Assembly: GCF_024298765.1 (NCBI RefSeq)
Contig: NZ_CP101210.1
Reading direction: 5' to 3' (one strand)
Length of the DNA: 64,000 bases
DNA from: Escherichia coli
Lineage (GTDB): Bacteria > Pseudomonadota > Gammaproteobacteria > Enterobacterales > Enterobacteriaceae
Part shown: positions 34,572-57,729 of the stretch, one piece after another
Numbering within the stretch: the first letter of the stretch is position 1
Layout: every line of letters begins with the position of its first letter
Notes under the pieces: model-generated
Seen by the model: only the letters and a program-made list of their open reading frames with translations
The model's database searches: none
What the model was told of the DNA's origin: nothing
Program-made: the position numbers and the translations under genes

Positions 34572-34600
34572 TTAAACAGGGTGACAGTCCGACATACCGG

Positions 34601-36106: not shown

Positions 36107-36308
36107 AGATGTGCACTCCGTAAGAAAACATCTTTTATTTCATGATGTTATTATGCATCATGATGTTGAAAGGATGTGTCGCATCCGAATAATCAGAAAT
36201 AAAATGCAGCAGAAAAAATATTCCTTTAATTATCTGATTTTTAAGCAGGGTTTCATAAAAAGAAGAATGCTTGTTAATCCAGCGACACATCCTGTCGGCG
36301 TGAGTGTG

Positions 36309-37193
36309 TCAGAACAGACGATCCCACAGTGTGACCAGCAAGTGGATAATGCGGTCCCGGGCCTTACGCAGAAGCTGTAACATCCAGGCCGGAAAGCTGA
36401 ATTGGGCAACGGCAGCGTCAAAGCTTTTCCCGATGGCGTCACCAAAAGTTTGTTGTGCGTGTTTCCGGGCCTGTTCAGAGCGGTTTTCCCCCCGGATATG
36501 TGAATAAACTGCGCTGGTTGCCTGTGGTGGCAGTGCGTGGATCATCAGCGACACCAGTGCCGGAAGATTCCAGCCGACAGGTGCGGCAACGGAGAGTACC
36601 GGAAATGATGACGGGAACAGGGGTGCCACCCGGGCTGTTACTGTCGCCAGTGAGAGTTCCTGCTGACGGGACGGGCATTTTTCTGTGTCGTTCCATTCTT
36701 CAGCAGGAAACACGCGATCGGCATGGCTGAGAACAAACAGAAAACGCGAGGGATCTGCACCTTCATTCAGTAAAAACTGATGCATGGCAATATCAGCAGC
36801 ATACGCACGTTCATCAGCCCGCAGGATCCAGATAATCAGATCCAGTTCCGGCAGTAACTGACGGTAAAGCTCCCGGTATTCCTGATCATGCTGCGGTGTC
36901 TCACCAATGCCGGGCATATCGACCAGCGTCATTCTGCGTTCACCGAGCTGCAGGGTAAGACGATGAGCCTGGCGGGTGCAGCCGTTCAGGGGATGCGTGG
37001 CGCAGATACGGGACTGAAAAATGGCATTACACAGACTGCTTTTGCCGGTGCCGGATTTACCCATAATGCCAATTACGGGCTCGTAATGAATAACACCGTG
37101 GAGATGTTCAAGGATTTTCTGGCGAATTTCTTCAGGAAGAAACGTCAGATATGATTTTACTTGTGCAGAGAGGGAAGAATGGCTGAATGACAT
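36309..37193 (-). CDS. GTP-binding protein (YfjP/YkfA/YeeP family)
   Basis: G1 motif GIMGKSGTGKSS, G3-like DMPGIGE; 294 aa. Confidence 0.8.
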   Translation of the reverse strand: MSFSHSSLSAQVKSYLTFLPEEIRQKILEHLHGVIHYEPVIGIMGKSGTGKSSLCNAIFQSRICATHPLNGCTRQAHRLTLQLGERRMTLVDMPGIGETPQHDQEYRELYRQLLPELDLIIWILRADERAYAADIAMHQFLLNEGADPSRFLFVLSHADRVFPAEEWNDTEKCPSRQQELSLATVTARVAPLFPSSFPVLSVAAPVGWNLPALVSLMIHALPPQATSAVYSHIRGENRSEQARKHAQQTFGDAIGKSFDAAVAQFSFPAWMLQLLRKARDRIIHLLVTLWDRLF

Positions 37194-37377
37194 ACCGGTA
37201 TCCTGTTGATTTCGCTGAACCGGATCACACTAATCCGGTTTATCATTCAGGTAATATGGACGTGAAAAATGATGGAATGTCTGAATTACGGACATGATTG
37301 TTAAAGTGTAATGGAGTATGAAGTGAGTTTTTCCGAACGGGAACTAATGACATACTGCGGTTTCAGGAGATGAGAGG

Positions 37378-38508
37378 ATGACCGGACGTAAAAACAAATG
37401 TGTCAGAAAAAATTGTAACAATCAGGTTTTCTCAGTAAAAATGGCAGTGGAGAAAAGACTGTGCAGAAAACATTATGAGAGGTTTTGTGAGCTCAAAAAA
37501 AGAAGAGAGCAAAATCCTGTTCACAGATTAAATGAAGCATTGCCAAGAAAGATAAAAGGACCAAAAAGTAAGAAAAAATTAGTAAAAGAAAGAGAAATCA
37601 TTAACAGCAGAAAAAAACATAAACAGGAGCAGGGACCATCGCTGACTGAACTTAATAAAAAAGTTCGTGAGATACTGAAAACTCCTGCATGGAGAACGCT
37701 GGAAACGAGAATTCGAAGAAACGGAATCACATTTAACTCAAAAGCAGAGTTAGATGCGCTTTCTGAACTTTATGCAATTTATTCATGGGTTTCATATTGC
37801 AAACGGGGCGATAATTATTCTGTGTGGTTTTTGAATTGTCCGGATGTAAATATAAACCTTCATGTGTGCGAATGCCGGTCTTCTGAAAGCGATTGTTATC
37901 TGCCATCTCGTTTTATTATTCTTCCAGCTCCATTAAGGCAAAAAGTAAAAAGAAAATACTCGGCTAATTCGTCTGGGGTACCAGGACATAATGATTCAAA
38001 AAGTCTTTATAAGACAGTTTTGTCTGTTTGTGGTGGGAAAAGAGAAACCGAAATGTTCTTTTATTCATTGCCAGTAAAGACTAATCATCATCCTTACTGG
38101 ATTAAAAGTGGTGTGGTTAAAAGATTCCCTCCTGTTTTTGGTTTGTTGTTTTATGAACAGGAAAGATTAACAGGAGGTGTTTTTCGTTATGTGTTGATAA
38201 GATTTTATAATACTTTTAAAGAGAATTTGTTTTTTGTTGAGATTGTATCGTGCTGTTTTCTTGTTGAGCTTTTTCATGATATTGATTCATTTTTTATAAA
38301 TCAACGATTAAGTAAGCTGGAAAGTTTTATAGATAAGTGGAGGGAGGGTAAAGAAATCTGGATAAAAGTATATTTACAACTGATACATACTATATTGGGA
38401 ATAACTGAAACAGAAAAACTCGTCAATCTATATAATTCATTTTTTACTGATAAAGTGGTTCTCTGGGATGAATCAGTAAAAAAAGTTAAGTGGATTTATG
38501 AGAAATAG
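37378..38508 (+). CDS. Hypothetical Lys-rich protein with Cys-rich N-terminus (orphan)
   Basis: 376-aa ORF, strongly AT-rich by eye; N-terminus CVRKNCNNQ...CRKHYERFC; no recognisable homolog. Confidence 0.45.
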   Translation: MTGRKNKCVRKNCNNQVFSVKMAVEKRLCRKHYERFCELKKRREQNPVHRLNEALPRKIKGPKSKKKLVKEREIINSRKKHKQEQGPSLTELNKKVREILKTPAWRTLETRIRRNGITFNSKAELDALSELYAIYSWVSYCKRGDNYSVWFLNCPDVNINLHVCECRSSESDCYLPSRFIILPAPLRQKVKRKYSANSSGVPGHNDSKSLYKTVLSVCGGKRETEMFFYSLPVKTNHHPYWIKSGVVKRFPPVFGLLFYEQERLTGGVFRYVLIRFYNTFKENLFFVEIVSCCFLVELFHDIDSFFINQRLSKLESFIDKWREGKEIWIKVYLQLIHTILGITETEKLVNLYNSFFTDKVVLWDESVKKVKWIYEK

Positions 38509-40013
38509 TACCATTTAACTGAAAGCCACCATAACGTCTTTTTGACTACATTTATGATAATGCGTCTCATTTTGTTTTCGTTTTTTTGTTCAGGGAAATT
38601 TTCCGAACATCAGTGATAATGAGGGTTTTGTTGTTTTTGTTTCTGCAATGTTTGAGGACTGTTCCTGGAGACGATTCGTTGCTTGTGAGCAAGAGGTGGT
38701 CCGCTTTACTGGACAAGTTTTGCATTTGTTGAGTGGTGAAATGGAAGTAAAAAGAGCCCCTTTCTGGCAATGGTTGAAAAAGTCAGTAGCGTGTGACAGT
38801 AAAAGCTAACATAAAGTGATTATCGTATGATTATGACAATGACTTATAACTTTTATGAAAAGAACAACAGAAACTACGAAGCCATAGCAGATTCCTGAGA
38901 CCATGTTTTCTGAGGTAGAGAAAATAATTCCAGAGTAAATCTGTTCTGTTTTTAGGACAGAAAACTCCATGCTGGCTGTAAAAGTGAAAAATTAACACCC
39001 AGTATGTATGGAAGTCTGAAGATGTTGAGAATGTCGGTATGATACTATATACACATATTTTACTAAGTATTTTTACTAAGCATTTCAGTAAGTGTTATAC
39101 ACGTATTTTCATAAACACTTCTACAATTGTTTTCGTTAAGCATTGCTATACACATCCAGTTTAGTAAATCTTTACGTTAACTAAATCAGTTTAATGCTGC
39201 TGTAAAACCTTTCTGCTTCAGCAATCAATCTGCTATTCGATTTTACTGATGTTACGTTTAACCTTTCCTGAGATTTCGAGTTTCGACGTTAGCATGAGAA
39301 AAGTATCTTTACGCTAAATCAACCCGAACTTTCCTGAAGTAATCTGACGTTCTTTTCGATGTGCTTACAACGATTCTGTTAAATGACTTTCTGGATGTTT
39401 TGATAACAATCAGATTTAGGCATTAACGATTCCTGACGTTTTTCTTTTCCGTGTAAGGTCATTGTTTTCGTCATGAGGTTTCTTCTTGCATTGCGAAAGT
39501 GTGATGAACGGTTTTGGTGTTTTGATTCAGATGAAGTTTACGTTATCGATGGTTAATCGTTTTTATGGTGCGTAGTGAAACGTAACGCTTTCAGGAAGGG
39601 AAAATCGATTCTGATGGGGATGATCGTGTAACGGCGTTATCTGTAAACAGGTTTTAAACATGTCATTCGCATCCGTGATTGAGTTGTGTGATTAAGCTGT
39701 AGGTTTTGGGGTTGTTGTTGATTTGCATTACCAGGAAGCGTTCTGGTTGCGTTTCTGGTGTTTTGTTTGAATGTTCTGTGGATCCTTTTCCCTTCTGACT
39801 TTTCTCGTTGTCTATGTCGTTTTTAAATCCATTCGCTGTTCTTGAGTGTTTTTACCCTGTGTGTAGAATTATCTTTTCGTTCCGGGATGGTTTGTTCCGT
39901 TTCAATCACTCTTAATCAGAAAGTTGTAGCATTGCTCAATGCCGGATGCCGTAAAGTTTTACCGCGGTGATTAATGATGTGAAGTCAATCCAAATCAACG
40001 GAGATCTCTCATC

Positions 40014-40745
40014 ATGAATCAACCAATACACAATGCTTACTGGTTATCCCGTTTTGACAGCCTTCTCGACAGTGCCCTGGCGCAGCACCGTGCCGTCTCG
40101 TTAATCCGGGTGGATTTACGTTTCCCTGAGTATATGCCTGTCACCATCATGGATCCCGATCCGGATTCAGCGGTGATTTCTCGTTTTTTTGCATCCCTGA
40201 AAGCCAAAATTCAGGCTTACCAGCGGAAAAAAAGATGTGCCAATCAGCGTGTGCATGCAACCAGCCTGGGTTATTTCTGGTGCCGGGAGTTCGGCAAGAT
40301 GTATGGCAGGAAACATTATCACGTGATATTACTGCTCAACAAAGATACCTGGTGCTCGCTCGGGGATTTCAGCGAACCGTCTTCGCTGGCGACGATGATC
40401 CAGGAGGCATGGTGCAGCGCCCTGCATCTTGAGCCCTGGCAGGGTAATGGACTGGTTCATTTTTCCAGGCGGACGCCTTTCCGTAAACCGACATCATCTG
40501 ATGCTCGCCCTTCTTCCGATGATACGCCTTTGTCGGGTGGATGTTCTGAAACCAGGAAGGTTTCAGACAAAAAGTCTGGTGAAGCCGCTGTTCTCTGGAT
40601 CAAGCGTGGTGATGTGGAAGCGATGCAGAAAGCCCGGAACAGAGCCAGTTATCTCGTGAAAAATGAAACGAAGTTGCATGATGGTTCAGGTCAACGTAAT
40701 TATGGTTGCAGTCGTGGGCCGGGGCGTCTACTGGATGGCAGGTGA
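40014..40745 (+). CDS. YfjJ/YagK-like (inovirus Gp2-family) protein
   Basis: 243 aa MNQPIHNAYWLSRFDSLLDSALAQHRAVSLIRVDLRFPEY...; resembles prophage-island YagK/YfjJ proteins. Confidence 0.6.
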   Translation: MNQPIHNAYWLSRFDSLLDSALAQHRAVSLIRVDLRFPEYMPVTIMDPDPDSAVISRFFASLKAKIQAYQRKKRCANQRVHATSLGYFWCREFGKMYGRKHYHVILLLNKDTWCSLGDFSEPSSLATMIQEAWCSALHLEPWQGNGLVHFSRRTPFRKPTSSDARPSSDDTPLSGGCSETRKVSDKKSGEAAVLWIKRGDVEAMQKARNRASYLVKNETKLHDGSGQRNYGCSRGPGRLLDGR

Positions 40746-41111
40746 ACCCTGTAAAACAGCATCTGGTGCCTGAGTGTATACCACGGTAAGGGCGTTGGAT
40801 GATGTCTTTAAATAATACAGTGCATTTTCATTCGTTTCCGCACTTTATGTTTTCACTAATCATAATAGGAAAAGTGACCACTAGCCTTGATAAATTGTAT
40901 TCACGGCCATTTCAGGAGTGGATTGTTGTGAATAACACGATGAGATCAGGGGGCTGAAGATTTTTTCTTTATCCGTTCAGACTTCAGTAACTGGAAAAAG
41001 CTTTCTGTAACCGCATTATAGTGGCAGTTACCGCGATGGTCGTGTTATTTCAGGAACGACTGACGCTCATGGCTTGTACACTAAAGAGTGAACTTAGGTA
41101 ATGACTCCAAC

Positions 41112-41615
41112 TTATTGATAGTGTTTTATGTTCAGATAATGCCCGATGACTTTGTCATGCAGCTCCACCGATTTTGAGAACGACAGCGACTTCCGTCCCA
41201 GCCGTGCCAGGTGCTGCCTCAGATTCAGGTTATGCCGCTCAATTCGCTGCGTATATCGCTTGCTGATTACGTGCAGCTTTCCCTTCAGGCGGGATTCATA
41301 CAGCGGCCAGCCATCCGTCATCCATATCACCACGTCAAAGGGTGACAGCAGGCTCATAAGACGCCCCAGCGTCGCCATAGTGCGTTCACCGAATACGTGC
41401 GCAACAACCGTCTTCCGGAGACTGTCATACGCGTAAAACAGCCAGCGCTGGCGCGATTTAGCCCCGACATAGCCCCACTGTTCGTCCATTTCCTCGCAGA
41501 CGATGACGTCACTGCCCGGCTGTATGCGCGAGGTTACCGACTGCGGCCTGAGTTTTTTAAGTGACGTAAAATCGTGTTGAGGCCAACGCCCATAATGCGG
41601 GCAGTTGCCCGGCAT
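41112..41615 (-). CDS. insB: IS1 InsB (expressed as InsAB by frameshift)
   Basis: ...[64 protein letters not shown]... Confidence 0.9.
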
Positions 41616-41809
41616 CCGACGCCATTCATGGCCATATCAATGATTTTCTGGTGCGTACCGGGTTGAGAGGCGGTGTAAGTGAACTGTAGTTGCCATGTTT
41701 TACGGCAATGAGAGCAGAGATAGCGCTGATGTCCGGCAGTGCTTTTGCCGTTACGCACCACGCCTTCAGGAGCGGAGCAGGAAGGACATCTGATGGAAAT
41801 GGAAGCCAC
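41534..41809 (-). CDS. insA: IS1 InsA
   Basis: [43 protein letters not shown]... Confidence 0.9.
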
Positions 41810-42072
41810 GCAAGCACCTTAAAATCACCATCATACACTAAATCAGTAAGTTGGCACCATTACCTGACCAAGCTTCCTCTATTGCGGCACCTGATTGCAT
41901 CAATATCGAAAGTGATAAGATCCTCTCACTAGCAGGGCATGACAAGTGTAACTGCTGATTTGTTAGCCTGTTTTAAGTTTTTTAAGATCAATTATTTCTC
42001 ATTTTTTGACTTTATTGCTAGCCGTGAAAATGCAAAGCCTATAGGATACAAAAATTACAATTTGTAGGTTTT

Positions 42073-42579
42073 GTGAGTCATATGAAGGCAACCAATATAG
42101 ACCCTCAACTGCTTGAAAAAGCCACGAGTATCTTTGCTGAGTTGGGCTTACCTATTGAGCAGGCTATTAACGTCTTTTTAGCTAAATCCGTTCAAGCCAA
42201 AGGTTTTCCGTTTTCTGTTGCTCTTGAAAATGAAGTAGAGACACGGGAAGTTGCACAAACGCAACACAATATCAGCAATGCAGAGATAACCGAAGCTATC
42301 CAAGACTTGGTTGAACATGCTCTACCACTGAGTGAAATAGAAAACCTCACGCAGCTAACCTATTGTCGCAACATTTTTGGGTTGTCATTCCCCGTGCTCA
42401 AACTGGCTAAATCATCACGGCCAGAAGACATTCGCAGTGCAGCCAAAGATGCCAAAGAGCGAAACCGCTACTCCACCACTAAAGTGGCCCAGCGAGATGA
42501 AAAAACCTATGTTATTTGCACCCAATGGACCGACAGACATCGTTCTGCATTTTGCCGTTGGCAAGCCATCTTTAGCTAG
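42073..42579 (+). CDS. RelB/DinJ-like antitoxin-domain protein with C-terminal extension
   Basis: N-terminus MKATNIDPQLLEKATSIFAELGLPIEQAINVFLAKSVQAKGFPF resembles DinJ/RelB RHH antitoxins; ~90-aa C-terminal extension unrecognised; no adjacent toxin ORF. Confidence 0.5.
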   Translation: MSHMKATNIDPQLLEKATSIFAELGLPIEQAINVFLAKSVQAKGFPFSVALENEVETREVAQTQHNISNAEITEAIQDLVEHALPLSEIENLTQLTYCRNIFGLSFPVLKLAKSSRPEDIRSAAKDAKERNRYSTTKVAQRDEKTYVICTQWTDRHRSAFCRWQAIFS

Positions 42580-42645
42580 AACGCAAAATAATAACCAAAC
42601 AATACACTGATTTTTTAACGATTTAACTTCATTTAGGTAGTATCA

Positions 42646-44625
42646 ATGAACTTACAAGACAAAGAACAAAGCGCCAAACTCTCCAGTGCTATTTGGCGTA
42701 TGGCAGATGATTTATGGGGTGATTTCAAACACACCGATTTTGCGCGGATTATCCTGCCATTTTTGCTACTGCGTCGTATTGAATGCGTGTTAGAACCCAC
42801 CCGTGAGGAAGTTCGTAAGTTCTATCTGGCCGAAAAACAATCCGGCATAGACCTTGGTTTAGTGTTGCCAGAAATTGCGGGATTCGCCTTTTACAACACC
42901 AGTGAATATAGCCTAGAAACCTTAGGCGCGTCAGACACCGGCGACAACCTAGAACACTACATCAGCCAGTTCAGCAAAAACGTTCGTACCATCTTTGATG
43001 AGTTTAAATTTGGTCAAACCATAGAAGATCTGGAAAAAGCCAAGTTGCTGTATCGCATGGTAAACCATTTTGCCAACCTCGACTTGCATCCTGATGTAGT
43101 GTCTGACCGCGTATTATCAGATGCTTATGAAGAGCTGATTCTAAAGTTCGCCAGTTCGGTTAATGAAAAGGCCGGGGAATTTATGACCCCGCGTGATGCC
43201 GTGCGTCTTGCCACCAAACTGGTGCTGGCGGCGGATGAAGATATCTTTAGTGAAAAGGGTGTGATCCGCACCATCTATGACCCAACCTGTGGCACGGGCG
43301 GTTTCCTTTCCGATGCCATTAGCCAAATTGAAGAAATGGGCAGCAGCGCTAAAGTCGTGCCTTTTGGTCAAGAGCTCGACCCCGCGACCCATGCCATGGC
43401 GCTGACCAATATGATGATCCGCGGTTTTGATGCCAATAACATCAAGCAAGGCAACACCTTATCAGACGATCAGTTACGTGCCGACAAGTTTCACTACGGC
43501 CTTGCCAACCCGCCATTTGGCATTAAGTGGGAAAAAGCCAAGAAAGAAGTAGAACGTGAGCACAAACAGCTCAAATACGCCGGACGCTTTGGGCCAGGCC
43601 TGCCGAGTATTTCTGATGGTTCAATGCTGTTTTTACTGCACTTGGTATCAAAAATGGAAACGCCGGAAAATGGTGGTGGCCGAGTGGGTATAGTCCTTTC
43701 TGGCTCGCCACTGTTTAATGGCGATGCAGGCTCAGGCCCATCAGAAATCCGCCGTTGGCTGCTAGAACAAGACTTAGTCGAAGCGATTGTTGCCCTGCCA
43801 ACCGATATGTTCTTCAACACCGGCATTGGCACCTACATCTGGATTTTGACTAACCATAAAGAGCCAAGACGCAAGAATCAGGTGCAACTGATTAACTTGG
43901 CAGATATTTGGACTCCCATGCGTAAATCGCAAGGCGATAAGCGCAAGTACCTGAGTGATGAACAGATTGACGATATTGTCCGTGCGTACGATGGCTTTGA
44001 AGCCAGTGACAACTGTAAGATCTTCCAGACTACTGATTTTGCCTACCGTAAAGTCACCATTCAGCGTCCACTGCGTGCCAAACTAGATATTACCGCTGCG
44101 GGCATTGCTGCATTTGTGCAGCAAGATACGTTTAAAAAACTCAAACCAGAGCAACAAGCGGCATGGGTACAATACCTCACCGATAACCTTGGCCTTCAGC
44201 CTTATGAATGGGCACGTTTGGCGGTTAAGAAGAATAACAATAAGGGTGACTTTGGTAAGTGCTCAAAAGCACTGGCTACGGCCTTAACTGCGCACTTTGT
44301 AAAAATTGATCCGCAATTTGAGCCTGCACTGGATGAAAAAGGCCAAGTGATCGCCGACCCTAAACTCAAAGACACCGAAAGCATTCCTTTTGACCGCGAC
44401 GTTGAAGATTACTTCGCACAAGAGGTGCTGCCACATGTACCGGATGCCTTTATTGATCACTCAGTGCGTGATGAAAAAGACGGCGAAGTGGGCATTGTCG
44501 GTTATGAAATTAACTTTAACCGCTATTTCTACCAATACGTGCCACCACGCGAGTTGAGTGTGATTGATCGTGAGCTAAAAGCATGTGAAGCGCGCATTCA
44601 GGCTCTGCTGAATGAGGTGGCGTAA
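42646..44625 (+). CDS. hsdM: Type I restriction-modification system, DNA methyltransferase subunit
   Basis: AdoMet motif DPTCGTGGFL and catalytic NPPF (GLANPPFGIKWEK); 659 aa. Confidence 0.9.
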   Translation: MNLQDKEQSAKLSSAIWRMADDLWGDFKHTDFARIILPFLLLRRIECVLEPTREEVRKFYLAEKQSGIDLGLVLPEIAGFAFYNTSEYSLETLGASDTGDNLEHYISQFSKNVRTIFDEFKFGQTIEDLEKAKLLYRMVNHFANLDLHPDVVSDRVLSDAYEELILKFASSVNEKAGEFMTPRDAVRLATKLVLAADEDIFSEKGVIRTIYDPTCGTGGFLSDAISQIEEMGSSAKVVPFGQELDPATHAMALTNMMIRGFDANNIKQGNTLSDDQLRADKFHYGLANPPFGIKWEKAKKEVEREHKQLKYAGRFGPGLPSISDGSMLFLLHLVSKMETPENGGGRVGIVLSGSPLFNGDAGSGPSEIRRWLLEQDLVEAIVALPTDMFFNTGIGTYIWILTNHKEPRRKNQVQLINLADIWTPMRKSQGDKRKYLSDEQIDDIVRAYDGFEASDNCKIFQTTDFAYRKVTIQRPLRAKLDITAAGIAAFVQQDTFKKLKPEQQAAWVQYLTDNLGLQPYEWARLAVKKNNNKGDFGKCSKALATALTAHFVKIDPQFEPALDEKGQVIADPKLKDTESIPFDRDVEDYFAQEVLPHVPDAFIDHSVRDEKDGEVGIVGYEINFNRYFYQYVPPRELSVIDRELKACEARIQALLNEVA

Positions 44626-45911
44626 TGAATGCTGGCAACATAGTAGATGCTTTCGTATCTGACTCGAAATGGAACTCAGTACCAGCTAAACGTTTATTTA
44701 CGAGTAGCAAAGAAATCAATCAAGGAATGAAAGAATCTAATCGTCTTGCACTAACAATGAAAGGTGTCATAAACCGCTCGTTAGACGATTTACAAGGACT
44801 TCAATCTTCTGATTACTCTGTTTATCAGATTTTTGAAAAAGATGACTTAGTTTTTAAGCTCATAGATCTTGAAAATATAAAGACTAGCCGAGTGGGGATT
44901 GTGCATGAACGAGGAATAATGAGCCCTGCATACATCCGTGTTTCAGCGAGTTCAAATAGCATCTACCCAAGGTTCTATTACTGGTACTTTTTTGCTCTAT
45001 ACCTAACCAATATTTATAACAAACTGGGTGGAGGAGTTCGTCAGAACCTAACAGCTGGTGATCTTTTAGAAATACCTGTTCCACTGATTGATATTTCATT
45101 ACAGAAGCAGGTTAGCACATTCCTTGATCGCGAAACCCAGCGCATCGACAGTCTGATCGAGGAAAAGCAGACCTTTATTAAGCTGCTCAAAGAAAAACGC
45201 CAAGCACTGATCAGCCATGTGGTCACAAAGGGGCTCTATCCCAATGTGGAGATGCAGGACTCTGGCATCGAGTGGATTGGGCAAGTGCCGAAGCATTGGG
45301 AAGTCAAAAAGATAAAGCATATTTGCTCCAACTTTATGTATGGAACCTCTCAAGACTGTAACCAGTCTGATGTTGGCTATCCTGTTCTCAGGATACCAAA
45401 CATCAAGAGTACCAATGTTGATTTTGAAGATCTCAAATATGCAAATATCAGTGATGTTGATGCTTTAACTTATCTTTTATCAAGAGGCGACATTTTAGTC
45501 ATCAGAACTAACGGTAACCCTAATCTGGTCGGCCAAAGCGCGCTTTTTGATTCAAATGGGCAGTATTTATTTGCGTCGTACCTAATAAAGTTAACACCAA
45601 AGCAAGGAGTGGATACTAGCTTCTTAGTGGAAGCGATGAACTCACTATCTGTTCGTCAAGCATTAACATTTCAGTCAAGAACATCGGTAGGTAACTACAA
45701 CCTGAGCATTCCTTCACTAGCTAATACAAGTATTGCTATCCCACCAATTGATGAGCAAAAGACAATAACGAATTACTTGAGTGCAGCAACGATAAACATT
45801 GATTTACTGATTCAAGAGACTGATAAATCGATTGATCTTCTAAAAGAACACCGCACATCGCTGATCAACGCGGCTGTCACAGGAAAAATAGACGTCAGGG
45901 AGGCGGTGTAA
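44625..45911 (+). CDS. hsdS: Type I restriction-modification system, specificity subunit
   Basis: 428 aa with two target-recognition domains separated by conserved repeats (LIEEKQTFIKLLKEKRQALISHVVTKGL / LLIQETDKSIDLLKEHRTSLINAAVTGKIDV); start overlaps hsdM stop (TAATG). Confidence 0.85.
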   Translation: MNAGNIVDAFVSDSKWNSVPAKRLFTSSKEINQGMKESNRLALTMKGVINRSLDDLQGLQSSDYSVYQIFEKDDLVFKLIDLENIKTSRVGIVHERGIMSPAYIRVSASSNSIYPRFYYWYFFALYLTNIYNKLGGGVRQNLTAGDLLEIPVPLIDISLQKQVSTFLDRETQRIDSLIEEKQTFIKLLKEKRQALISHVVTKGLYPNVEMQDSGIEWIGQVPKHWEVKKIKHICSNFMYGTSQDCNQSDVGYPVLRIPNIKSTNVDFEDLKYANISDVDALTYLLSRGDILVIRTNGNPNLVGQSALFDSNGQYLFASYLIKLTPKQGVDTSFLVEAMNSLSVRQALTFQSRTSVGNYNLSIPSLANTSIAIPPIDEQKTITNYLSAATINIDLLIQETDKSIDLLKEHRTSLINAAVTGKIDVREAV

Positions 45912-48900
45912 TGGCTGCACATCATGAAGTGCATTTTGAACAATATATTACCGAGCAGTTGGTGAACAATGGCTGGAAAGAAGGCCATTCCTGCCACTAT
46001 GACCAGCAACGCGCCCTTTACCCGCAAGATGTCATGGATTGGGTAAAGGCCACCCAGCCAGATGCCTGGCACAAACTGAATAAACTGCATGGTGTGAATG
46101 CCGAGCAGGTGCTGTTGGAGCGTTTGGAAAAAGCCCTCTCTTCCCACAAAGCTGGCAGTAAAACAGGTGGCACCATTAATGTGCTGCGTAAAGGCTTTAC
46201 CATTGCAGGTTGCGGCACGATTGCCATGGGCCAACGCAAACCCGAAGATGCGCGCAATGAAGAGCGTATAGCCCGTTATGAGCACAACATTTTGCGCGTG
46301 GTGCGCCAACTGAAATATTGCCCGACTCGCGAGTGGGAAATTGACTTGGTGTTCTTTATCAACGGTCTACCCGTTGCCACCGCCGAGCTAAAAACCGATT
46401 TTACCCAGTCGCTAGAATCGGCGATTGCGCAGTACAAAGAGGATCGTCTGCCCGTTGACCCAAAAACCAAGCGTAAAGAGCCGCTGTTAACCTTTAAACG
46501 CGGTGCAGTGGTACATTTTGCCATGTCTGATACAGAAATCGCCATGGCGACCAAACTGGCGGGAGAAAATACCTATTTTCTGCCCTTCAATAAAGGCCAT
46601 GATGGTTCTACCTCTGATTTGCCCGTACACATCAACTTGCCGGGTGAAGATGGAGAGTATCCGGTCAGCTATTTTTGGCAAGAAATTGCCCAAAAAGATA
46701 ATTGGCTACGCATTTTCTACAGCTTTGTGTATGTCGAAACCAAAGAGGTTGCCGATAGCAATGGCAAGGTTGAGCGTAAGGAAACACAGATTTTTCCGCG
46801 TTATCATCAGTTAGCCGCAGTCAACAAGATGATTGATGATGCCCGCCAGAACGGCGCAGGCATGCAGTATCTTTGTGAGCACAGCGCCGGTTCGGGAAAA
46901 ACCTCTACCATAGCCTGGACGGCCCATGATTTGATTCGTTTACGCAGCACCGATGGTAAAGCGGTCTTTAAATCAGTGATCATTGTGACCGACCGCACCG
47001 TGCTGGATTCGCAGTTGCAAGATGCGGTGCAACAGCTGGATCATCAATATGGGGTGATTAAGGCGATTGATCGCGAAAAGAGCAGCGAGTCGAAATCAAA
47101 ACAGCTGACTGAAGCGCTATTGACTGGCACGCCGATCATTGTAGTGACGATTCAAACCTTCCCATATGCGTTAGAAGCGATTCTGACCAATCAATCTTTG
47201 GCACAAAGTAACTTTGCGGTGATCATCGATGAAGCACACACCTCGCAAACAGGCTCTACAGCCAAAGGGTTACGCGCAGCGCTTACTCTAAACCTTAGCC
47301 CTCAAGAGTTGGAGCAAATGAGCATTGAGGACATTCTTACTAAGGTGCAAGAAGCGCGCGCCATGCCCAAGAACGTTTCGCACTTTGCTTTTACGGCAAC
47401 ACCCAAGCACAGCACCAAGATGTTGTTTGGCCGCCCGAAAGACCCTAACCAACCAGTGTCAGATGACAATCTTCCTGAATCGTTCCACCTCTACACCCAA
47501 CGTCAGGCCATTGATGAGGGTTTTATTCTTGATGTGCTGGAGAATTACACCCACTACGATACAGCCTACAAAATTGGTGAGAACAATCTGGATGAGAAGC
47601 GCGTAGACAGCAAACAAGCTCGCCGCGCGTTGGCGCGCTGGATGTCACTGCACCCAACCACGGTCAGCCAAAAAGTCGAATTTATTATTAAGCACTTCAA
47701 GGCCAATATCGCTCACCTACTGGAAGGTGAAGCCAAAGCCATGGTGGTCACATCGGGCAGGCCACAGGCGGTGAAATACAAGCTTGCTTTTGATAAATAC
47801 ATTAAAAAGCATGGTATTGAAGGTATCCAAGCCTTGGTTGCCTTCTCGGGCAAAGTCCCCGGCAAAGATTTGGGTGATGAAGACAGCCAAGACCCGCTAG
47901 AAATTGATTTCGATAAAGAGTACACCGAGTACAACTTAAACCCAGACACGCACGGGGCTGACCTGCGCCATGAGTTTGAGAAAACCGAATATCGCGTCAT
48001 GTTAGTCGCCAACAAGTTCCAAACGGGCTTTAATCAACCAAAACTGGTTGCCATGTATTTGGATAAGAAAATATCCGATGTAGAAGCGGTGCAAACGCTG
48101 TCTCGCCTAAACCGCACCTATCCAGGCAAAGACACAACCTTCGTGATTGATTTTGTTAACGATCCACAAACCATTCTCAATGCGTTCAAAAAGTACGACA
48201 AAGGCGCGCAGCTTAATGAAGTGCAAGATGTGAACGTCATCTATGACATCAAAGATATTTTGGATGAACAGAACATATACAACCATCAAGATTTAGAGTT
48301 GTTTAAGCAAGCGCGTGGTAAATCGATTCTCGGCCAATCACCTGACAAAAAGCCACACGCGCACAAGAAACTGCTAGCTGCCACACAACGCCCTACCGAT
48401 GTGTTCAACGTTAAGCTCAAAGAGCTGGTTGATGCTGCAAACCATTGGGATCAGCAATACAACAAAGCGCACCTTGCGGGTGATGAAAAAGCGGCGAACT
48501 ACGCAGAATCTCAGCGCAGTGATTTCACCAAGCAGCGCGAAGCACTAATGCGTTTTAAGTCAGATTTAGCTCGATTTGTGAAGCACTATAGCTATATGGC
48601 GCAATTGATTGAGTTTGGTGATCCTGAACTGGAAAACTTTGCCGCGTTTGCTCATTTGCTATCACGTCGATTGAAAGGGGTAACACCAGAAAACATCGAT
48701 CTCAGTGCACTGGTACTAGAAAAATTCAAAATCAAATACGACAAAGAGCCGCTTCCAGAAGCGTTTAATCAGGTACTTGAACCTATCCGCCCCAACTATA
48801 ACGACCCTGCGGATCGTGAACAGGCATTTCTTGCCGATATCATTCGCCGCCTAAACGAACTGTTTGGCGATGTCGGCGACGAACCCGGTCGCCGAAACTT

Positions 48901-49147
48901 TGCCAACGGTACTATTACGCGTGTCACCCAAAATCCAATTGTGGTTGAGCAGATAGAAAAGCACGACAAGTCGATTGCCCTCAAAGGCGACTTGCCGCAA
49001 GCGGTGAAGCAAGCCGTTGTGCAGGCTCTGCTGAAAGAAGGTGATATAGCCCGAACGCTACTCAAAGACCCACAAGTTATGGCAAGTTATGTTGAGTTGA
49101 TTTTTGACATGATGAAGCAAGGTGCAGAACAGGCGGCGGTGAAATAA
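45911..49147 (+). CDS. hsdR: Type I restriction-modification system, restriction/helicase subunit
   Basis: 1078 aa; Walker A SAGSGKTST, DEAH box (IIDEAHTSQ); start overlaps hsdS stop (TAATG). Confidence 0.9.
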   Translation: MAAHHEVHFEQYITEQLVNNGWKEGHSCHYDQQRALYPQDVMDWVKATQPDAWHKLNKLHGVNAEQVLLERLEKALSSHKAGSKTGGTINVLRKGFTIAGCGTIAMGQRKPEDARNEERIARYEHNILRVVRQLKYCPTREWEIDLVFFINGLPVATAELKTDFTQSLESAIAQYKEDRLPVDPKTKRKEPLLTFKRGAVVHFAMSDTEIAMATKLAGENTYFLPFNKGHDGSTSDLPVHINLPGEDGEYPVSYFWQEIAQKDNWLRIFYSFVYVETKEVADSNGKVERKETQIFPRYHQLAAVNKMIDDARQNGAGMQYLCEHSAGSGKTSTIAWTAHDLIRLRSTDGKAVFKSVIIVTDRTVLDSQLQDAVQQLDHQYGVIKAIDREKSSESKSKQLTEALLTGTPIIVVTIQTFPYALEAILTNQSLAQSNFAVIIDEAHTSQTGSTAKGLRAALTLNLSPQELEQMSIEDILTKVQEARAMPKNVSHFAFTATPKHSTKMLFGRPKDPNQPVSDDNLPESFHLYTQRQAIDEGFILDVLENYTHYDTAYKIGENNLDEKRVDSKQARRALARWMSLHPTTVSQKVEFIIKHFKANIAHLLEGEAKAMVVTSGRPQAVKYKLAFDKYIKKHGIEGIQALVAFSGKVPGKDLGDEDSQDPLEIDFDKEYTEYNLNPDTHGADLRHEFEKTEYRVMLVANKFQTGFNQPKLVAMYLDKKISDVEAVQTLSRLNRTYPGKDTTFVIDFVNDPQTILNAFKKYDKGAQLNEVQDVNVIYDIKDILDEQNIYNHQDLELFKQARGKSILGQSPDKKPHAHKKLLAATQRPTDVFNVKLKELVDAANHWDQQYNKAHLAGDEKAANYAESQRSDFTKQREALMRFKSDLARFVKHYSYMAQLIEFGDPELENFAAFAHLLSRRLKGVTPENIDLSALVLEKFKIKYDKEPLPEAFNQVLEPIRPNYNDPADREQAFLADIIRRLNELFGDVGDEPGRRNFANGTITRVTQNPIVVEQIEKHDKSIALKGDLPQAVKQAVVQALLKEGDIARTLLKDPQVMASYVELIFDMMKQGAEQAAVK

Positions 49148-49701
49148 TGAATACTGCGTTTCGGGTTTTACTTACGTTCAATGCAACATCACTACTAGTG
49201 ATTATCTTTGCGGTACAAAAAGGGTACTCACTCGGATATTTCTTTGGTGGTTTCGCTTGCTTCGATTGGATAGCAGCACTTCCGAACGCAGTATCATATT
49301 TACTCTATTTTCTTATCCCTGTTTTATCGACTGGATTGAGTATTTGGCTGAGTAAGTATTTGGGTAAAGACGATTTTAAGGCGGGTGAAGTAGCGAGTAT
49401 TGAGCATGCCAATAACAGCTTCCTACCAAGTTATTTGGGTTACTTTTTCGTGGCGTTGAGCATTGGTAACTGGGAGACATTGTGGTTTGTTTATGGCGTT
49501 TTGTTTGTTTTTACTCTCTTATCGCAAGCACTCTACTTTAACCCATTGTTTTTACTGTTTGGTTATGAGTTTTATAACATTACAACCAAAAACGGAACGG
49601 CCATTTTCCTTATTAGCCGAGAGCGCTACAAGAAGCCAGATGACATCGAAATATCATTGGCTTATCGAATCAATAATTACACATTTATCGAGCGAGGATA
49701 A
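49147..49701 (+). CDS. Small polytopic membrane protein (about 4 predicted TM helices), candidate defense component (KwaA-like architecture)
   Basis: 184 aa with hydrophobic segments LLVIIFAV, WIAALPNAVSYLLYFLIPVLSTGLSIWL, YFFVALSIGNW, LWFVYGVLFVFTLLSQALYF; ATG overlaps hsdR stop (TAATG); AT-rich. Confidence 0.55.
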   Translation: MNTAFRVLLTFNATSLLVIIFAVQKGYSLGYFFGGFACFDWIAALPNAVSYLLYFLIPVLSTGLSIWLSKYLGKDDFKAGEVASIEHANNSFLPSYLGYFFVALSIGNWETLWFVYGVLFVFTLLSQALYFNPLFLLFGYEFYNITTKNGTAIFLISRERYKKPDDIEISLAYRINNYTFIERG

Positions 49702-50543
49702 TGATGGACCATGTACTGGCACATATAAAAACTAGAGCAAAAAAACGCATTTTCAAATTGGTTTCTGATCAATCTCTTTTTGATACCGTCACAATCGACT
49801 TAAATGCCTGTATTCCATACAATCCAGACCATAACCTTGACGAAGACTCATGGTTTAAAATTGAAGACTTTAGTCAAAAAGAGTTTTGTATTGAACTGCT
49901 AAAAAAAGACTATGATTCAAAAGACTACGATGACTTAACCAAAGATAACTTCGCCAAGATCGCCTACTTATTTGCAATTCAAGGTAATGATTTTTACTTT
50001 CAAAAAATCACTCCAAGCCTATTCGTAAAACGCAAAACGCTTGTTTTTGGTGAAGCCGCAGAAATTGAGAAGAGCCAAACACGTTTAGTAATAAACGCCT
50101 TACCTGATGCAGTGTACTTCAAAGTGGCCGATACCTTGATATTCAAAAATCTGGCAACGATCTCGAGCATTTTTAAAGGTATCGATGAGTTGTACAAGGA
50201 AGCAACAAAAGAAGAAGTTGAGCAGTTTTTAGATGCACAGTTTATAGAGTTGGGTAATGACTACAACGTAGATAGCGTCTCAAAACCTAATAGAAAACGT
50301 ATTGGCCTTGCTATGGCAACACTTGATGCGATGTCTGCTGACGATAAAGCTAACATGCTTGATTATATCGACGGTTACTGCGGTGAACAGAAGCTGAAAT
50401 TCGATAAAGAAAATCAGAAGTTTGAAATATCTAATGACGATGAGTTGAAGTTACTGCTTTATGGCATTGAACAACGCTTCTATACGACCCCGTTTGGCAA
50501 AGAAAAAAGGCTCGCTAACTCTGTAACCGCTATGGATAAATAA
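49701..50543 (+). CDS. Soluble acidic protein, partner of the membrane protein (KwaB-like position)
   Basis: 280-aa ORF, no TM segment, no recognised catalytic motif; ATG overlaps preceding stop (TAATG), GAGG SD. Confidence 0.55.
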   Translation: MMDHVLAHIKTRAKKRIFKLVSDQSLFDTVTIDLNACIPYNPDHNLDEDSWFKIEDFSQKEFCIELLKKDYDSKDYDDLTKDNFAKIAYLFAIQGNDFYFQKITPSLFVKRKTLVFGEAAEIEKSQTRLVINALPDAVYFKVADTLIFKNLATISSIFKGIDELYKEATKEEVEQFLDAQFIELGNDYNVDSVSKPNRKRIGLAMATLDAMSADDKANMLDYIDGYCGEQKLKFDKENQKFEISNDDELKLLLYGIEQRFYTTPFGKEKRLANSVTAMDK

Positions 50544-50578
50544 TAGCCCATTATCAGTAACATATGAAGGTTGATTCA

Positions 50579-51613
50579 ATGGCCGATAACATCCCACAAG
50601 CTCCTCAAGGTGAGTTTGTTCTTTTCACCAGTGCTGATGGTCAAACCCGCGTTGAGTGTCGTTTTGAGTCTGACACCTTGTGGCTTTCTCAGGCTGCAAT
50701 GGCAGAGCTTTATCAAGTTAGCTCTCAAGCAATCACCCAACACGTAAAAGCTGTCTATTCTGAAGAAGAGCTTGAGCAAATTTCAACTTGTAAGGATTAC
50801 TTACAAGTTCAACTGGAAGGTGGCAGAGAAGTAAAGCGAAGCATTCGTCACTACAGTCTTCCGGTTATTCTTGCAGTAGGATACCGAGTTCGCTCAACAC
50901 GTGGCACCCAGTTCCGCCAATGGGCAACCAGAATGTTGCAAGAATACCTAATCAAAGGATTCGTCATGGATGACGAGCGCCTGAAAAATCCGCCCATTGG
51001 CCATTCTGCTGTGCCAGATTACTTTGATGAAATGCTGGAACGCATTCGTGATATCCGAGCTAGTGAGCGTCGCGTTTATCTGCGAGTCAAAGAAATCTTT
51101 ACCATGGCTGCTGATTACGAGCCATCTAACCAAGAGACCAACCGCTTCTTCCAAACCATTCAGAATAAGCTGCATTATGCTTGTACGCATATGACGGCTG
51201 CTGAGCTTATCGCCAGCCGTGTGGATGCCAGTAAGCCGGATATGGGCTTAACCAGCTATAAAGGCGATGAAGTGCGCAAGACAGACGTTACTGTTGCCAA
51301 GAACTATTTGCGTGAAGACGAAATCAAAGAGCTTAATCGCATCGTCAATATGTGGCTCGACTTTGCTGAAGACCAAGCACTGCGTCGCAAGCAGGTATTT
51401 TTACAGGACTGGGCCGATAAGCTTGACCAGTTCTTGAGTTTTAACGATAGAGATGTATTAAACGGTGCAGGAAAAATCTCCAAGAAAGACGCTGATGACA
51501 AAGCGAAATTGGAGTTTGACCGCTTTGCCCAGCAGCGCCGTCGTTTAAAAGAAGCCGAAGGCGCACGGGCCAATATCGCAGCCCTCAAGGCCATACTAAA
51601 AAAAGATAAATAG
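50579..51613 (+). CDS. rhuM: RhuM-family virulence-associated protein
   Basis: ...RHYSLPVILAVGYRVRSTRGTQFRQWATRMLQEYLIKGFVMDDERL... matches the conserved RhuM core as I recall it. Confidence 0.7.
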   Translation: MADNIPQAPQGEFVLFTSADGQTRVECRFESDTLWLSQAAMAELYQVSSQAITQHVKAVYSEEELEQISTCKDYLQVQLEGGREVKRSIRHYSLPVILAVGYRVRSTRGTQFRQWATRMLQEYLIKGFVMDDERLKNPPIGHSAVPDYFDEMLERIRDIRASERRVYLRVKEIFTMAADYEPSNQETNRFFQTIQNKLHYACTHMTAAELIASRVDASKPDMGLTSYKGDEVRKTDVTVAKNYLREDEIKELNRIVNMWLDFAEDQALRRKQVFLQDWADKLDQFLSFNDRDVLNGAGKISKKDADDKAKLEFDRFAQQRRRLKEAEGARANIAALKAILKKDK

Positions 51614-51670
51614 CCGATATAGTACAGCCCTGATCTCTAATGAGTTGAGGGCTGTGTTGTAAGATCATAA

Positions 51671-52057
51671 CTATAAAGGATTATCCATCTTAAAATCGTC
51701 GATATCGCCTGTCATTTTGAATAGATTGGTGTCATTCCAACGGCACAGTTGTCTAACCCGCATTAGATTTGAGTTGGCTCTGCGGATTATTGAGAAAGCA
51801 TCTTCAACAGCAGTAATCACCGATTTTTCCCAATCTTGTGCTCGGGTAAAGGTGCTTTGTGAATAGCGATAATTGCCCTCACGGGGGAGGTAATGGCTGA
51901 TCACCTGGTATTTGTCAGAATTCTTTTTAGGTTTAAACTCGTTGTAAACCCAGAAAATTTCGAGTTTTTTGTTTCTTTGCCTTACACGACAACCAAAATG
52001 ACCTGGGTAGCCTTCAGAGTTTTTACCTCTATGTGCAACGTTGTTCAGCCAGAACAA
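51671..52057 (-). CDS. Hypothetical protein (possible gene fragment, TTG start)
   Basis: 128-aa ORF with non-ATG start; no homolog recognised; upstream in-frame sequence closed by a stop. Confidence 0.25.
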   Translation of the reverse strand: MFWLNNVAHRGKNSEGYPGHFGCRVRQRNKKLEIFWVYNEFKPKKNSDKYQVISHYLPREGNYRYSQSTFTRAQDWEKSVITAVEDAFSIIRRANSNLMRVRQLCRWNDTNLFKMTGDIDDFKMDNPL

Positions 52058-52399
52058 GTCTGCAATTTTTTGTGCTATGTAGAAGTAGCGGAGCTGTTCT
52101 ATTTCGGTTGATTTATGGGTGTAGTGTAGATATTGCTCTGATATGGTTAAGGAAAAAGCATTGCGTCGTCTTGATTAACATTTGTGCTATTGACAATAAA
52201 GGTTTCCCAAATATTAATTTGTGTTTCTAGTCCTTTAAATGATTTTGAGAAGGCTTCTATGTACTCAGATTGCGGTTGATTTCCCCCATTTAGTGCTGCA
52301 CCAAATGTAGCTATCTATTGTTCTAAAAATGAATGATTTTTGGTCATTACATAATCCTCTGTGTGGTTGATACTGCGTATTTTCATGAAAGGAGATCAC

Positions 52400-54050
52400 T
52401 CAATAACCCCCCTGTGTCAGCATAGTTGTCGCCTCAATTTTTTAAGGAGATAACAATGCCAGGACAACCAATACCAAATGAGCTCAAAGAAAAAGGACTG
52501 ATATGGCTTTTGCCACCATACTGTTGGTCACACCGTCAGATAGCCCGGAAGCTGAAGATCAGTGCCTCAGTTGTATCAAAATGGAGATGTGAGTTAGTGG
52601 AGCAAGGACTTTTACCTGAAAATGAAAAGATTACCTCCGTTGATGTTGAAGACTGGACACCGGAGCGTCGATTCTCAGTTGTTCTTGAGACGGCTACGCT
52701 GTCTGTCACGAACGGTGCAATAGTGGATCACTTTTCATCCGTCGTTGACACTGTCAGAAATGGAGCTTGCCGATTATTGCCGACGCATGGGATTGTTTGT
52801 TGAACAGGTTAAAGAATGGCGGGCTATCTCAATTCAGGCGCATGAAAAAAATTGACGGAAAATATTCGAACAGACAGGGCATTGCGTGACGCAAAAAATA
52901 AGTTACGAGAACTGGAGAAAGAGCTTAAGCGCAAAGATAAAGCTCTGGCGGAAGCTGCGGCCCTGCTTATATTAAGGGAAAAGTTCAATGCCCTCTGGGA
53001 CAACAGCGAGGAAGACTGCCCCCTCTCCTGGAGCGGCATAAAATTATTTCTCTTGTCCGTGAGGCCGTCGCCAACGGCGCCCGGAAAGGTCAGGCTTGTA
53101 GGTGTATCGGTATTTCTATTCGGACACTTCAGCGCTGGACTAATGGCAACATCATCACCACGGACCGAAGATCCGATACTGTAAACAGCTCTCCCCGAAA
53201 TAAGCTGTCAGAAGCGGAAAGATTGCGAATACTGGAGTTGTGCAACTCTCCAGAGTTTGCATCCTTGCCTCCAAATGTGATCGTACCAACTCTGGCAGAC
53301 AGAGGTATTTATATTGCTTCTGAATCAAGTTTTTATCGTGTACTGAAATCAGCCAAGCAGTTGAAGAAACGATCCCGTGAATGCCAGTATAAACTGGCCT
53401 GATGTACTCAGGGCCGTTGCACCGAATCAAGTCTGGAGTTGGGACATCAGCTATTTGCCGTCCTGGGTCAGAGGCCAGCATTTTTACCTCTATATGATCG
53501 TCGATATTTACAGTCGCAAAATTATTGCTGCTGAGGTATTTGCCAGCGAATCTGGAAAACATGCAGCAGAACTACTCCAGCGTGCAGTATGGAATGAAAA
53601 ATGTTCATCCAACAATCTGGTACTCCATTCTGATAACGGTGGTCCCATGCGCAGTGACACGTTGTTGGCGAAAATGTATGCGCTTGGTGTGCTAAGTTCT
53701 TATTCCCGGCCAAGAGTCAGTAATGATAATCCTTACTCAGAATCTTTGTTCCGGACTCTCAAATATTGTCCCTGGTGGCCTGAGAACGGTTTTCGCACTA
53801 TTGATGATGCCAGAGTATGGGTAAACCAGTTTTGTAAACTGGTACAACTTTGAACATAAGCACAGCGGGATCAAATACGTCACGCCAGCCGAGCGTCATC
53901 AAGGTAATGACATGAAAATACTGGCAGCCTGAAAAGCGGTATACCAGCTAGCTCGCGAGCAACATCCTGAACGTTGGGGCAAGTATCTACGTAACTGGAA
54001 CTACATATCAGAAGTCTACCTGAATCCAGAAAAAGAGGCTGCATAACGTA
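52400..54050 (+). mobile_element. Degenerate IS3-family insertion sequence (frameshifted orfA/orfB)
   Basis: OrfA-like HTH segment (52456-52803), leucine-zipper segment in another frame (LRELEKELKRKDKALAEAAALLILREKFNALW), and DDE-domain pieces (VWSWDISYLP...LHSDNGGPMRS...SNDNPYSESLFRTLKY) spread over three frames. Boundaries approximate. Confidence 0.7.
52456..53853 (+). pseudogene. IS3-family transposase orfAB, disrupted by frameshifts
   Basis: Transposase domains recognisable but distributed over three reading frames with internal stops. Confidence 0.65.

Positions 54051-54986: not shown

Positions 54987-57729
<2,743 letters not shown>

Follow-up and report, generated by a model that had tools for sequence, protein, structure and literature searches.

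Kiwa is a two-gene defence system known since 2018 and first reported in Escherichia coli O55:H7 RM12579, with structures deposited in the Protein Data Bank (PDB 9mrx, 9mrg, 9mrr, 9mtn and 9nyu). Type I restriction-modification (RM) systems comprise the N6-adenine methyltransferase HsdM, the specificity subunit HsdS with two target-recognition domains (TRDs), and HsdR, which has an N-terminal nuclease followed by an SF2 motor and a C-terminal domain. A precedent for a further defence function, different in mechanism, being co-expressed with a type I RM operon is the anticodon nuclease PrrC of the type Ic EcoprrI hsd locus, a single cytoplasmic protein that interacts physically with the RM enzyme and is activated by an anti-restriction peptide from phage. 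The locus described here lies in a 64,000-nucleotide stretch of an E. coli chromosome (NCBI RefSeq assembly GCF_024298765.1, contig NZ_CP101210.1), referred to below as the window, in which the type I genes hsdM, hsdS and hsdR run directly into two genes for a membrane and a soluble protein, assigned here to a divergent Kiwa system and termed kwaA and kwaB. As with PrrC, an extra defence function appears to be encoded within a type I RM operon or at its end, but PrrC is unrelated to KwaA and KwaB, and the Kiwa pair also occurs without an RM system. It is highly likely that the locus is a horizontally acquired, compact multi-defence operon in which Kiwa acts as an autonomous second line, its proteins not being RM subunits.

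In E. coli, Kiwa forms a membrane complex of KwaA tetramers and KwaB dimers in which KwaB binds DNA, protecting cells from phages and from conjugation (PMC11785009). Characterised Kiwa systems were protective when cloned alone (PMC11785009; PMC11514479), the operons tested in the preprint coming from ECOR8, ECOR12, ECOR49 and D9 (PMC11785009). In Vibrio, gene-association cluster 308 contains KwaB_2, KwaA and the type I RM R, S and M genes as a co-occurring cluster (PMC12409351, Table 2), the orthologue group being labelled DefenseFinder 'Kiwa-KwaB_2' and listed with KwaA (PMC12409351). The Vibrio proteins belong to the same family as that in the window and carry the mistaken NCBI name 'ATP F0F1 synthase', but the cluster is listed without analysis of operon structure, junctions or cassette mobility (PMC12409351), and the window copy differs in lying in an E. 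coli chromosome flanked by IS1 and mobI(A/C). Beyond that table entry, no explicit description of Kiwa fused to hsd operons was found in the literature, and none of the E. coli instance, the stacked relics or the portable junction reported below. Kiwa itself is already structurally characterised, and both DefenseFinder and PADLOC already detect this subfamily.

Assignment of the downstream pair to Kiwa

The first gene of the pair, kwaA (49147..49701, + strand), encodes a predicted Kiwa membrane subunit of 184 aa that matches the PADLOC KwaA profile (PDLC00216, E 9.3e-16, residues 2-182), and kwaB (49701..50543, + strand) encodes a putative soluble DNA-binding effector of 280 aa that matches the PADLOC KwaB profile (PDLC00222, E 7.1e-14, residues 33-276). 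Since curated sequence resources missed both proteins, their folds were predicted with AlphaFold2 (AF2) and compared with the PDB using Foldseek. The hydrophobic segments of KwaA and the helices of its model (predicted local distance difference test, pLDDT, 85.4) fall at residues 2-25, 47-71, 93-105 and 109-125, giving four long helices, and the sole significant matches of the model were to the KwaA structures 9mrx_A, 9mrg and 9mrr (probability 1.0, template modelling (TM) score 0.48-0.63). The KwaB model, built from an alignment of 65 sequences that were taken from 534 clusters at 50% identity, has a pLDDT of 92.6 and the two-domain architecture expected of KwaB, with an N-terminal alpha/beta domain and a C-terminal DUF4868 domain. 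It gave six significant matches (E <= 0.001), all to KwaB (9mtn chains A, B, C and K, 9mrx_D and 9nyu_A; probability 1.0, TM 0.56-0.63, 11-12% identity over 313-328 aligned columns), with the next match at E 0.13. The relationship to Kiwa was revealed by this fold comparison and not by PDB sequence search.

In common with Kiwa of E. coli, the locus has two genes with kwaA 5′ of kwaB, a KwaA of about 185 aa with four long helices, and a soluble two-domain KwaB of about 280 aa. Along their whole length the two predicted folds resemble solved KwaA and KwaB, with no other match in the PDB, and the PADLOC Kiwa models recognise both proteins. Both kinds of locus are found in defence islands and mobile elements, and the gene order and the sizes of 184 and 280 aa agree with published Kiwa (PMC11785009). 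The window pair differs in being 11-20% identical to the solved KwaA and KwaB structures, in a KwaB about 35 residues shorter than the 315-aa solved protein, and in having neither an intergenic region nor a promoter of its own, being welded instead to the last type I RM gene.

Several results count against the assignment. Neither protein has a significant match in Pfam-A, and for the window KwaB the KwaB family PF16162 gave none at E <= 10. The NCBIfam KwaA model NF041622 scored 25.4 bits (E 1.1e-5) against a cut-off of 100, and because that cut-off was not reached, the Prokaryotic Genome Annotation Pipeline (PGAP) names KwaA a hypothetical protein, the name it also gives to KwaB. PDB sequence searches with either protein, and with the profile of the 65-sequence KwaB family, found no KwaA or KwaB chain. 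Membership of Kiwa at the level of sequence is marginal, and function and mechanism would be extrapolated across a large distance at 11-20% identity. PF16162 does match five of the 65 KwaB-family members (E <= 0.001), and precomputed matches to the KwaA family PF28043 are present on orthologues of the window KwaA. Taking profiles and predicted folds together, the membrane and soluble open reading frames (ORFs) are assigned to a divergent Kiwa system, KwaA plus KwaB. A preliminary description of this DNA had suggested that the pair might be accessory RM components or a second defence line under the same promoter, and it is the second suggestion that is favoured, because the pair is a Kiwa system.

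The KwaB-like family numbers 1334 matches, with members at 82-95% identity across Vibrio, Shewanella, Aeromonas, Alteromonas and other genera. Many of the homologues of window positions 49701-50543 (P0001-P0120) are named 'ATP F0F1 synthase synthase' by NCBI and UniRef. This name is a propagated misannotation and is supported by no profile.

Upstream restriction genes and the kwaAB cassette

The five + strand ORFs are all ATG-initiated (42646-44625, 44625-45911, 45911-49147, 49147-49701 and 49701-50543), and every ATG of the four downstream ORFs shares the last base of the preceding TAA stop. The identical 1-nt TAATG overlaps linking the five genes, as first claimed in the preliminary description, are exact in the ORF coordinates, lying on the + strand between hsdM and hsdS (44623..44627), hsdS and hsdR (45909..45913), hsdR and kwaA (49145..49149) and kwaA and kwaB (49699..49703). 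A Shine-Dalgarno (SD)-like purine-rich run lies 6-12 nt before each of these starts, within the preceding gene (GAGGTGG, GGGAGG, GGCGGTGA and GAGCGAGGA). The TAATG pentamer is not enriched across the window (145 matches versus 133 +/- 11 in shuffles), and the non-random feature is the placement of four copies at four consecutive ORF boundaries. The kwaA/kwaB junction reads TAATGATG, in which the second ATG aligns with the orthologous start; since KwaB orthologues begin MDH and not MMDH (consensus of alignment A2 and junction table), the orthologous kwaB start is probably this second ATG at 49704, 2 nt past the kwaA stop. Among the relatives the order of kwaA and kwaB is constant and their junction is -1 to +3 nt in all loci where it can be scored, the form being ATGA (a 4-nt overlap), TAATG or a gap of 1-3 nt. 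At the hsdR/kwaA boundary the window differs from the ATGA of its relatives by two substitutions, TGA to TAA and ATC to ATG. Comparison of these junctions indicates that the identical TAATG is lineage-specific and that the conserved trait is tight coupling rather than the pentamer.

Upstream, hsdM (42646..44625, + strand) encodes a 659-aa methyltransferase subunit with a full-length match to PADLOC MTase_I (PDLC03029, E 1.9e-243), hsdS (44625..45911, + strand) a 428-aa specificity subunit (PADLOC Specificity_I, E 4e-97), and hsdR (45911..49147, + strand) a 1078-aa restriction and translocase subunit (NCBIfam TIGR00348, 167 bits; PADLOC REase_I, E 3e-30) with the Pfam domains HSDR_N (60-220), SWI2_SNF2/ResIII/DEAD (296-564) and T1R_D3-like (608-748). 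By their domain content the three genes are predicted to make up a complete type I RM system, each of the three subunits being represented. The C-terminus of HsdR, which has a weak match to PDC-S15, was considered as a conserved third component and rejected.

The nearest relatives are two Vibrio loci, L015 and L016, with an identical seven-gene order and proteins 87-96% identical to those of the window, HsdM being 93% and HsdR 95-96% identical; the exceptions are HsdS (41-42%) and RhuM (82-83%). Window and Vibrio share a single block of nucleotide homology from 42034 to 51612, minus the two target-recognition regions of hsdS, within which homology is limited to a central segment (45120-45316) and the ends. 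The unrelated parts of hsdS are 44628-45120 and 45316-45828, while hsdM, hsdR and the remaining hsdS segments have 87-92% nucleotide identity. At the sequence level this pattern is that of a classic specificity swap through TRD exchange.

The edges of the kwaAB homology are sharp. Compared with L010, a locus of the lineage with type I genes in the order hsdR, hsdM, hsdS (R-M-S), nucleotide homology is confined to 49137-50535, starting 10 nt before the kwaA ATG and stopping 8 nt before the kwaB stop. HsdS proteins of the R-M-S lineage end in ...LLPMLMNGQVTVK, and the TGA stop that follows overlaps the kwaA ATG as ATGA. The Vibrio L015 HsdR ends in the same residues as this HsdS tail (...GAEQVTVK, then stop), and the window HsdR ends in ...GAEQAAVK, then stop; two plasmid HsdR homologues that were examined have quite different C-terminal ends. 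The last six hsdR codons and the stop (EQAAVK, then stop; 49127..49147, + strand; alignment A3), which contain the SD-like GGTGA for kwaA, are therefore probably a relic of an hsdS 3′ end transferred with the kwaAB cassette. It is inferred from these alignments that the graft, a cassette of approximately 1.4 kb, brought along a few terminal codons of hsdS as well as the SD-like GGTGA and the overlap of stop and start.

Similar traces remain elsewhere. A decayed hsdS 3′ end still lies 5′ of kwaA at loci where the RM genes have been replaced (L002, L013 and L018), and in loci with a PLD-helicase, and also in L040, it is preceded by a 149-codon relic of the 3′ end of a DUF2357 gene with 99% identity to Vibrio DUF2357/PDDEXK. 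The relics are found at L002:7880-8440, L013:5689-8440 and L040:3322-3669. The 149-aa ORF 5′ of kwaA in the marine loci was also tried as a conserved third component and set aside, being that same 99%-identical DUF2357 3′ end. The layered remnants 5′ of kwaA, as read from the alignments, were left by successive replacements of defence modules.

Relatives were surveyed with one genome per species (alignment A2), recovering 28 loci of which about 26 are informative, the survey being biased to relatives that are at least about 35% identical and have two specific peptide motifs. The distant representatives of 50% clusters (P0122, P0130 and P0175) lie mostly on contigs of 2-6 kb, L046 alone being informative. 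A type I RM operon is directly 5′ of kwaA on the same strand in 17 of the approximately 26 informative loci; another locus has a divergently oriented type I RM and a further one at least an hsdS tail. These upstream systems belong to three unrelated lineages with two gene orders. At 82-87% identity kwaAB is found behind a PLD-DEAD-DUF3427 helicase in marine metagenomes, behind a different type I RM of R-M-S order in Shewanella and behind a C5-methyltransferase with a DUF2357/PDDEXK module in Vibrio, and in more distant members the neighbour is a type II RM with Vsr, AbiL, a toxin-antitoxin (TA) antitoxin or nothing recognisable. The pair is present without type I RM genes in L002-L009, L013/14, L018, L038, L040, L041 and L046. 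The downstream neighbours vary as well (DarTG, RhuM, UG5-nitrilase DRT, Hachiman, an Mrr-like enzyme, or PDC-S14, PDC-M04 or PDC-M09 candidates). A neighbour-joining tree of KwaB places the R-M-S state at the base and shows it to be widespread, with the other upstream modules as derived replacements arising in at least 4-5 events; the 17 type I-linked loci therefore do not count as 17 independent events. It is clear from these loci that kwaAB is a portable pair recurrently located behind restriction modules. Far from being unlinked to RM genes wherever else it occurs, which the preliminary description had named as a reason to give up the link, the pair is tied to type I RM in most related loci.

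Whether homologous hsdR genes elsewhere are followed by the same pair, a question also posed in the preliminary description, has a divided answer. The pair follows hsdR in the two Vibrio loci; HsdR homologues with about 56% identity are also present on 769 plasmids, and in the two plasmid loci inspected kwaAB is absent, the M-S-R genes being followed by an ISL3 transposase. These two loci, from Enterobacter and Burkholderia plasmids (L043:2660-10522 and L044:2199-10513), have an ISKpn25-like ISL3 transposase after a 4-nt gap or an 8-nt overlap. The plasmid M-S-R genes may be cargo of an ISL3-family element. On the sequences surveyed kwaAB is also sometimes lost while the adjacent RM genes stay. 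Damaged copies were seen at L029:10001-10834, L030:6323-7159, L037:9700-10000 and L042:8741-10439, the damage being a kwaB cut to approximately 165 aa (two Vibrio loci), a disrupted kwaA (Pseudocolwellia) or kwaB fragments alone (one metagenome-assembled genome).

The strong bias to restriction modules upstream is a further point against autonomy, in that the pair could perhaps be not fully independent of them. One explanation, considered unlikely, is that kwaAB is Kiwa by descent but in this clade cooperates with the upstream restriction module, its welding having been selected for that cooperation. Membrane-tethered KwaB would capture or stall entering DNA and hand it to the slow translocating type I enzyme, or KwaB would back up restriction against DNA-mimic anti-restriction proteins. 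The latter variant would fit with the inhibition of type I RM enzymes by DNA mimics, Ocr and ArdA among them. KwaB for its part is inhibited by the DNA mimic Gam (PMC11785009), which also counts in favour of cooperation. The 17 type I-linked loci in three lineages and two gene orders are in keeping with this explanation, as are the replaced upstream modules, which are again restriction-type (type I RM, C5-methyltransferase with DUF2357/PDDEXK, PLD-DEAD-DUF3427 helicase-nuclease and, among distant members, type II RM); after at least four replacement events the cassette again stands behind a restriction-type module, and the coupling junction moved together with it. On the KwaB tree, however, the 17 loci reduce to about 3-5 independent junction events, and RM genes are the commonest defence genes, so that a restriction neighbour is often expected by chance. 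Moreover, family members occur beside AbiL, a TA antitoxin or no defence neighbour, some type I-linked loci have a gap of 36-46 nt instead of an overlap, and characterised Kiwa protects when cloned alone (PMC11785009; PMC11514479).

A recombination hotspot with kwaAB as its fixed right flank would explain the pattern equally. In the P2/P4 hotspots conserved flanks enclose swappable defence cassettes (PMC9122126), and the slot 5′ of kwaAB similarly holds any of three type I RM lineages, a C5-methyltransferase/DUF2357 module or a PLD-helicase, with the downstream slot varying too. The present case differs in that one flank, kwaAB, is itself a defence system and in that replacements left stacked relics of the DUF2357 and hsdS 3′ ends.

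Transcription of the block and its proposed action

The co-directional block extends beyond five genes, with a RelB/DinJ-like gene 66 nt 5′ of hsdM and a RhuM-family gene 20-35 nt 3′ of kwaB. A consensus scan of 41600-52200 for promoter-like and terminator-like sites, compared with shuffles, gave no excess of either (13 promoter-like sites versus 17.4 +/- 4.2; 8 terminator-like sites versus 11.0 +/- 3.9) and detected neither kind between hsdR and kwaA. Downstream, the first strong candidate for a terminator is a stable hairpin (51624..51656, strand not assigned) located between rhuM (+) and mobI (-), where the two genes converge; in an RNA fold of 51600-51680 it has dG -24.7 kcal/mol and z -4.0, with 0 of 200 shuffles equally stable, and its T-rich tail is on the - strand. 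A + strand terminator-like match at 50596-50619 was rejected as the operon end, since it lies inside the rhuM coding sequence (CDS) and such matches are no commoner than in shuffles. A single transcript with translational coupling is inferred to be likely, and the four overlaps with internal SD-like motifs, the scan result and the position of the hairpin after the sixth gene are all in keeping with the one operon proposed in the preliminary description. The stoichiometric co-expression that was also proposed does not follow from translational coupling.

An alternative regarded as very unlikely is that the overlaps are incidental compaction, kwaAB and separately rhuM using their own promoters inside the upstream CDS, so that the genes would be mere neighbours in an island. 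Defence genes do generally cluster in islands, a consensus scan could miss a weak internal promoter, which also tells against a single operon, and weak + strand promoter-like matches lie at 46675, 47198 and 49795, within hsdR and kwaB. In addition, where the upstream module is not a type I RM there is a gap of approximately 110 nt before kwaA, and the pair must be expressed there too. Yet promoter-like matches fall below the shuffle expectation, no + strand match lies within 1.9 kb 5′ of kwaA in the window or in the approximately 110-nt relic 5′ of kwaA in L002, and the junction with its SD-like sequence and overlap has been conserved through transfer between different upstream genes.

It is hardly credible that KwaA and KwaB are true accessory subunits required for type I RM activity, for example as a membrane anchor and a regulator. 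In favour of this reading, the overlaps with hsdR are tight, co-occurrence with the same hsdMSR is conserved in Vibrio (93-96% identity), and the block is intact in all 76 E. coli genomes that have it (of 5426 complete genomes), no partial copies being seen. Against it, KwaA and KwaB are both structural homologues of proteins from a two-gene defence system that works autonomously, and the pair also occurs where there is no type I RM (behind non-type-I modules, beside AbiL or with no defence neighbour). HsdR relatives, moreover, are common on plasmids, where the two inspected loci lack the pair, and the boundaries of homology around the cassette are sharp and do not depend on the RM genes.

As a compact multi-defence operon, the locus would comprise the relB-like gene, hsdM, hsdS, hsdR, kwaA, kwaB and rhuM. 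The type I RM would methylate host DNA and translocate and cut unmethylated incoming DNA. Kiwa, having no promoter of its own here, would depend for its expression on read-through from the last RM gene and on translational re-initiation, and the coupling junction carried by the cassette, made up of hsdS end codons, an SD-like sequence and an overlap, would allow in-frame welding to any upstream gene. By analogy with characterised Kiwa, from which the working of this divergent system is extrapolated, KwaA would be a four-helix inner-membrane protein whose tetramers keep dimeric KwaB at the membrane. When phage attachment, DNA ejection or conjugation perturbs the membrane, KwaB would be released or activated, and would then bind the entering DNA and block its replication and late transcription. 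RhuM would be a possible third barrier.

Chromosomal setting and implications

The RelB/DinJ-like gene (42082..42579, + strand) encodes 165 aa from the PGAP start, the mechanical ORF starting at a GTG at 42073. Its product matches NCBIfam TIGR02384 RelB_DinJ (E 1.7e-10) over residues 7-78 only, with an N-terminal antitoxin-type ribbon-helix-helix domain and an uncharacterised C-terminal half, and a gene with 87-88% identity stands directly 5′ of hsdM in Vibrio L015 and L016 too. No toxin gene is adjacent to it in the window, and it may be the first gene or regulator of the unit. The sixth gene of the block (50579..51613 from the PGAP start, with an in-frame ATG at 50564; + strand), named 'virulence RhuM family protein' by PGAP, is the PADLOC candidate defence gene PDC-S05, which it matches over its full length (PDLC04852, E 8.4e-167, residues 6-347 of 349); its counterparts at this position in Vibrio L015 and L016 and in Aliiglaciecola L018 share 82-83% identity with it.

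Of 5426 complete E. coli genomes, 76 carry the 9.7-kb block at >=95% identity (75 at >=99%), and every copy is chromosomal and complete. Its neighbours include IS1, mobI(A/C), IS3 fragments and a group II intron, with sul2/tet(B) resistance DNA nearby in one strain. A megablast of the locus against plasmids matched the rhuM part alone, on a Vibrio plasmid, and an Rfam scan of 41000-53000 returned no RNA family. The conjugative-transfer gene mobI(A/C) (51671-52144, - strand) converges on rhuM. Its presence and the block's Vibrio origin suggest a fragment of an IncC- or SXT-mobilisable island broken by IS1 (41112-41810) and IS3. The intron-encoded reverse transcriptase/maturase ltrA (55550-57073, - strand) is inside a disrupted IS3-family element, and the intron is missing at the equivalent position in other E. 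coli strains such as EM10-18-28. Upstream, approximately 30000-40800 is a CP4-44/CP4-57-like island segment with a CbtA/YeeU toxin-antitoxin pair, RadC, an antirestriction protein, DUF932 and an 'inovirus Gp2 family' (YagK/YfjJ-like) gene, the antirestriction gene being approximately 10 kb from the type I RM operon.

These results leave the knowledge of how Kiwa or type I RM systems work unchanged, but they expose a gap in annotation, both genes being 'hypothetical protein' in the two E. coli RefSeq records inspected for a block present in 76 complete genomes. Orthologues misnamed 'ATP F0F1 synthase synthase' are found in Vibrio, Shewanella, Aeromonas and other genera, and recognising them as Kiwa adds to the known defences of these strains. 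If kwaAB did cooperate with restriction, its welding to restriction modules would be functional and not just architectural. As an autonomous Kiwa within a shared operon, it would mean that carrier strains have at least two defences, and probably three, stacked under a single expression signal, which bears on the prediction of their susceptibility to phages and plasmids. The locus also illustrates how defence operons may be assembled, in that a 1.4-kb cassette with its own coupling junction appears to be graftable in frame onto the 3′ end of an unrelated gene.

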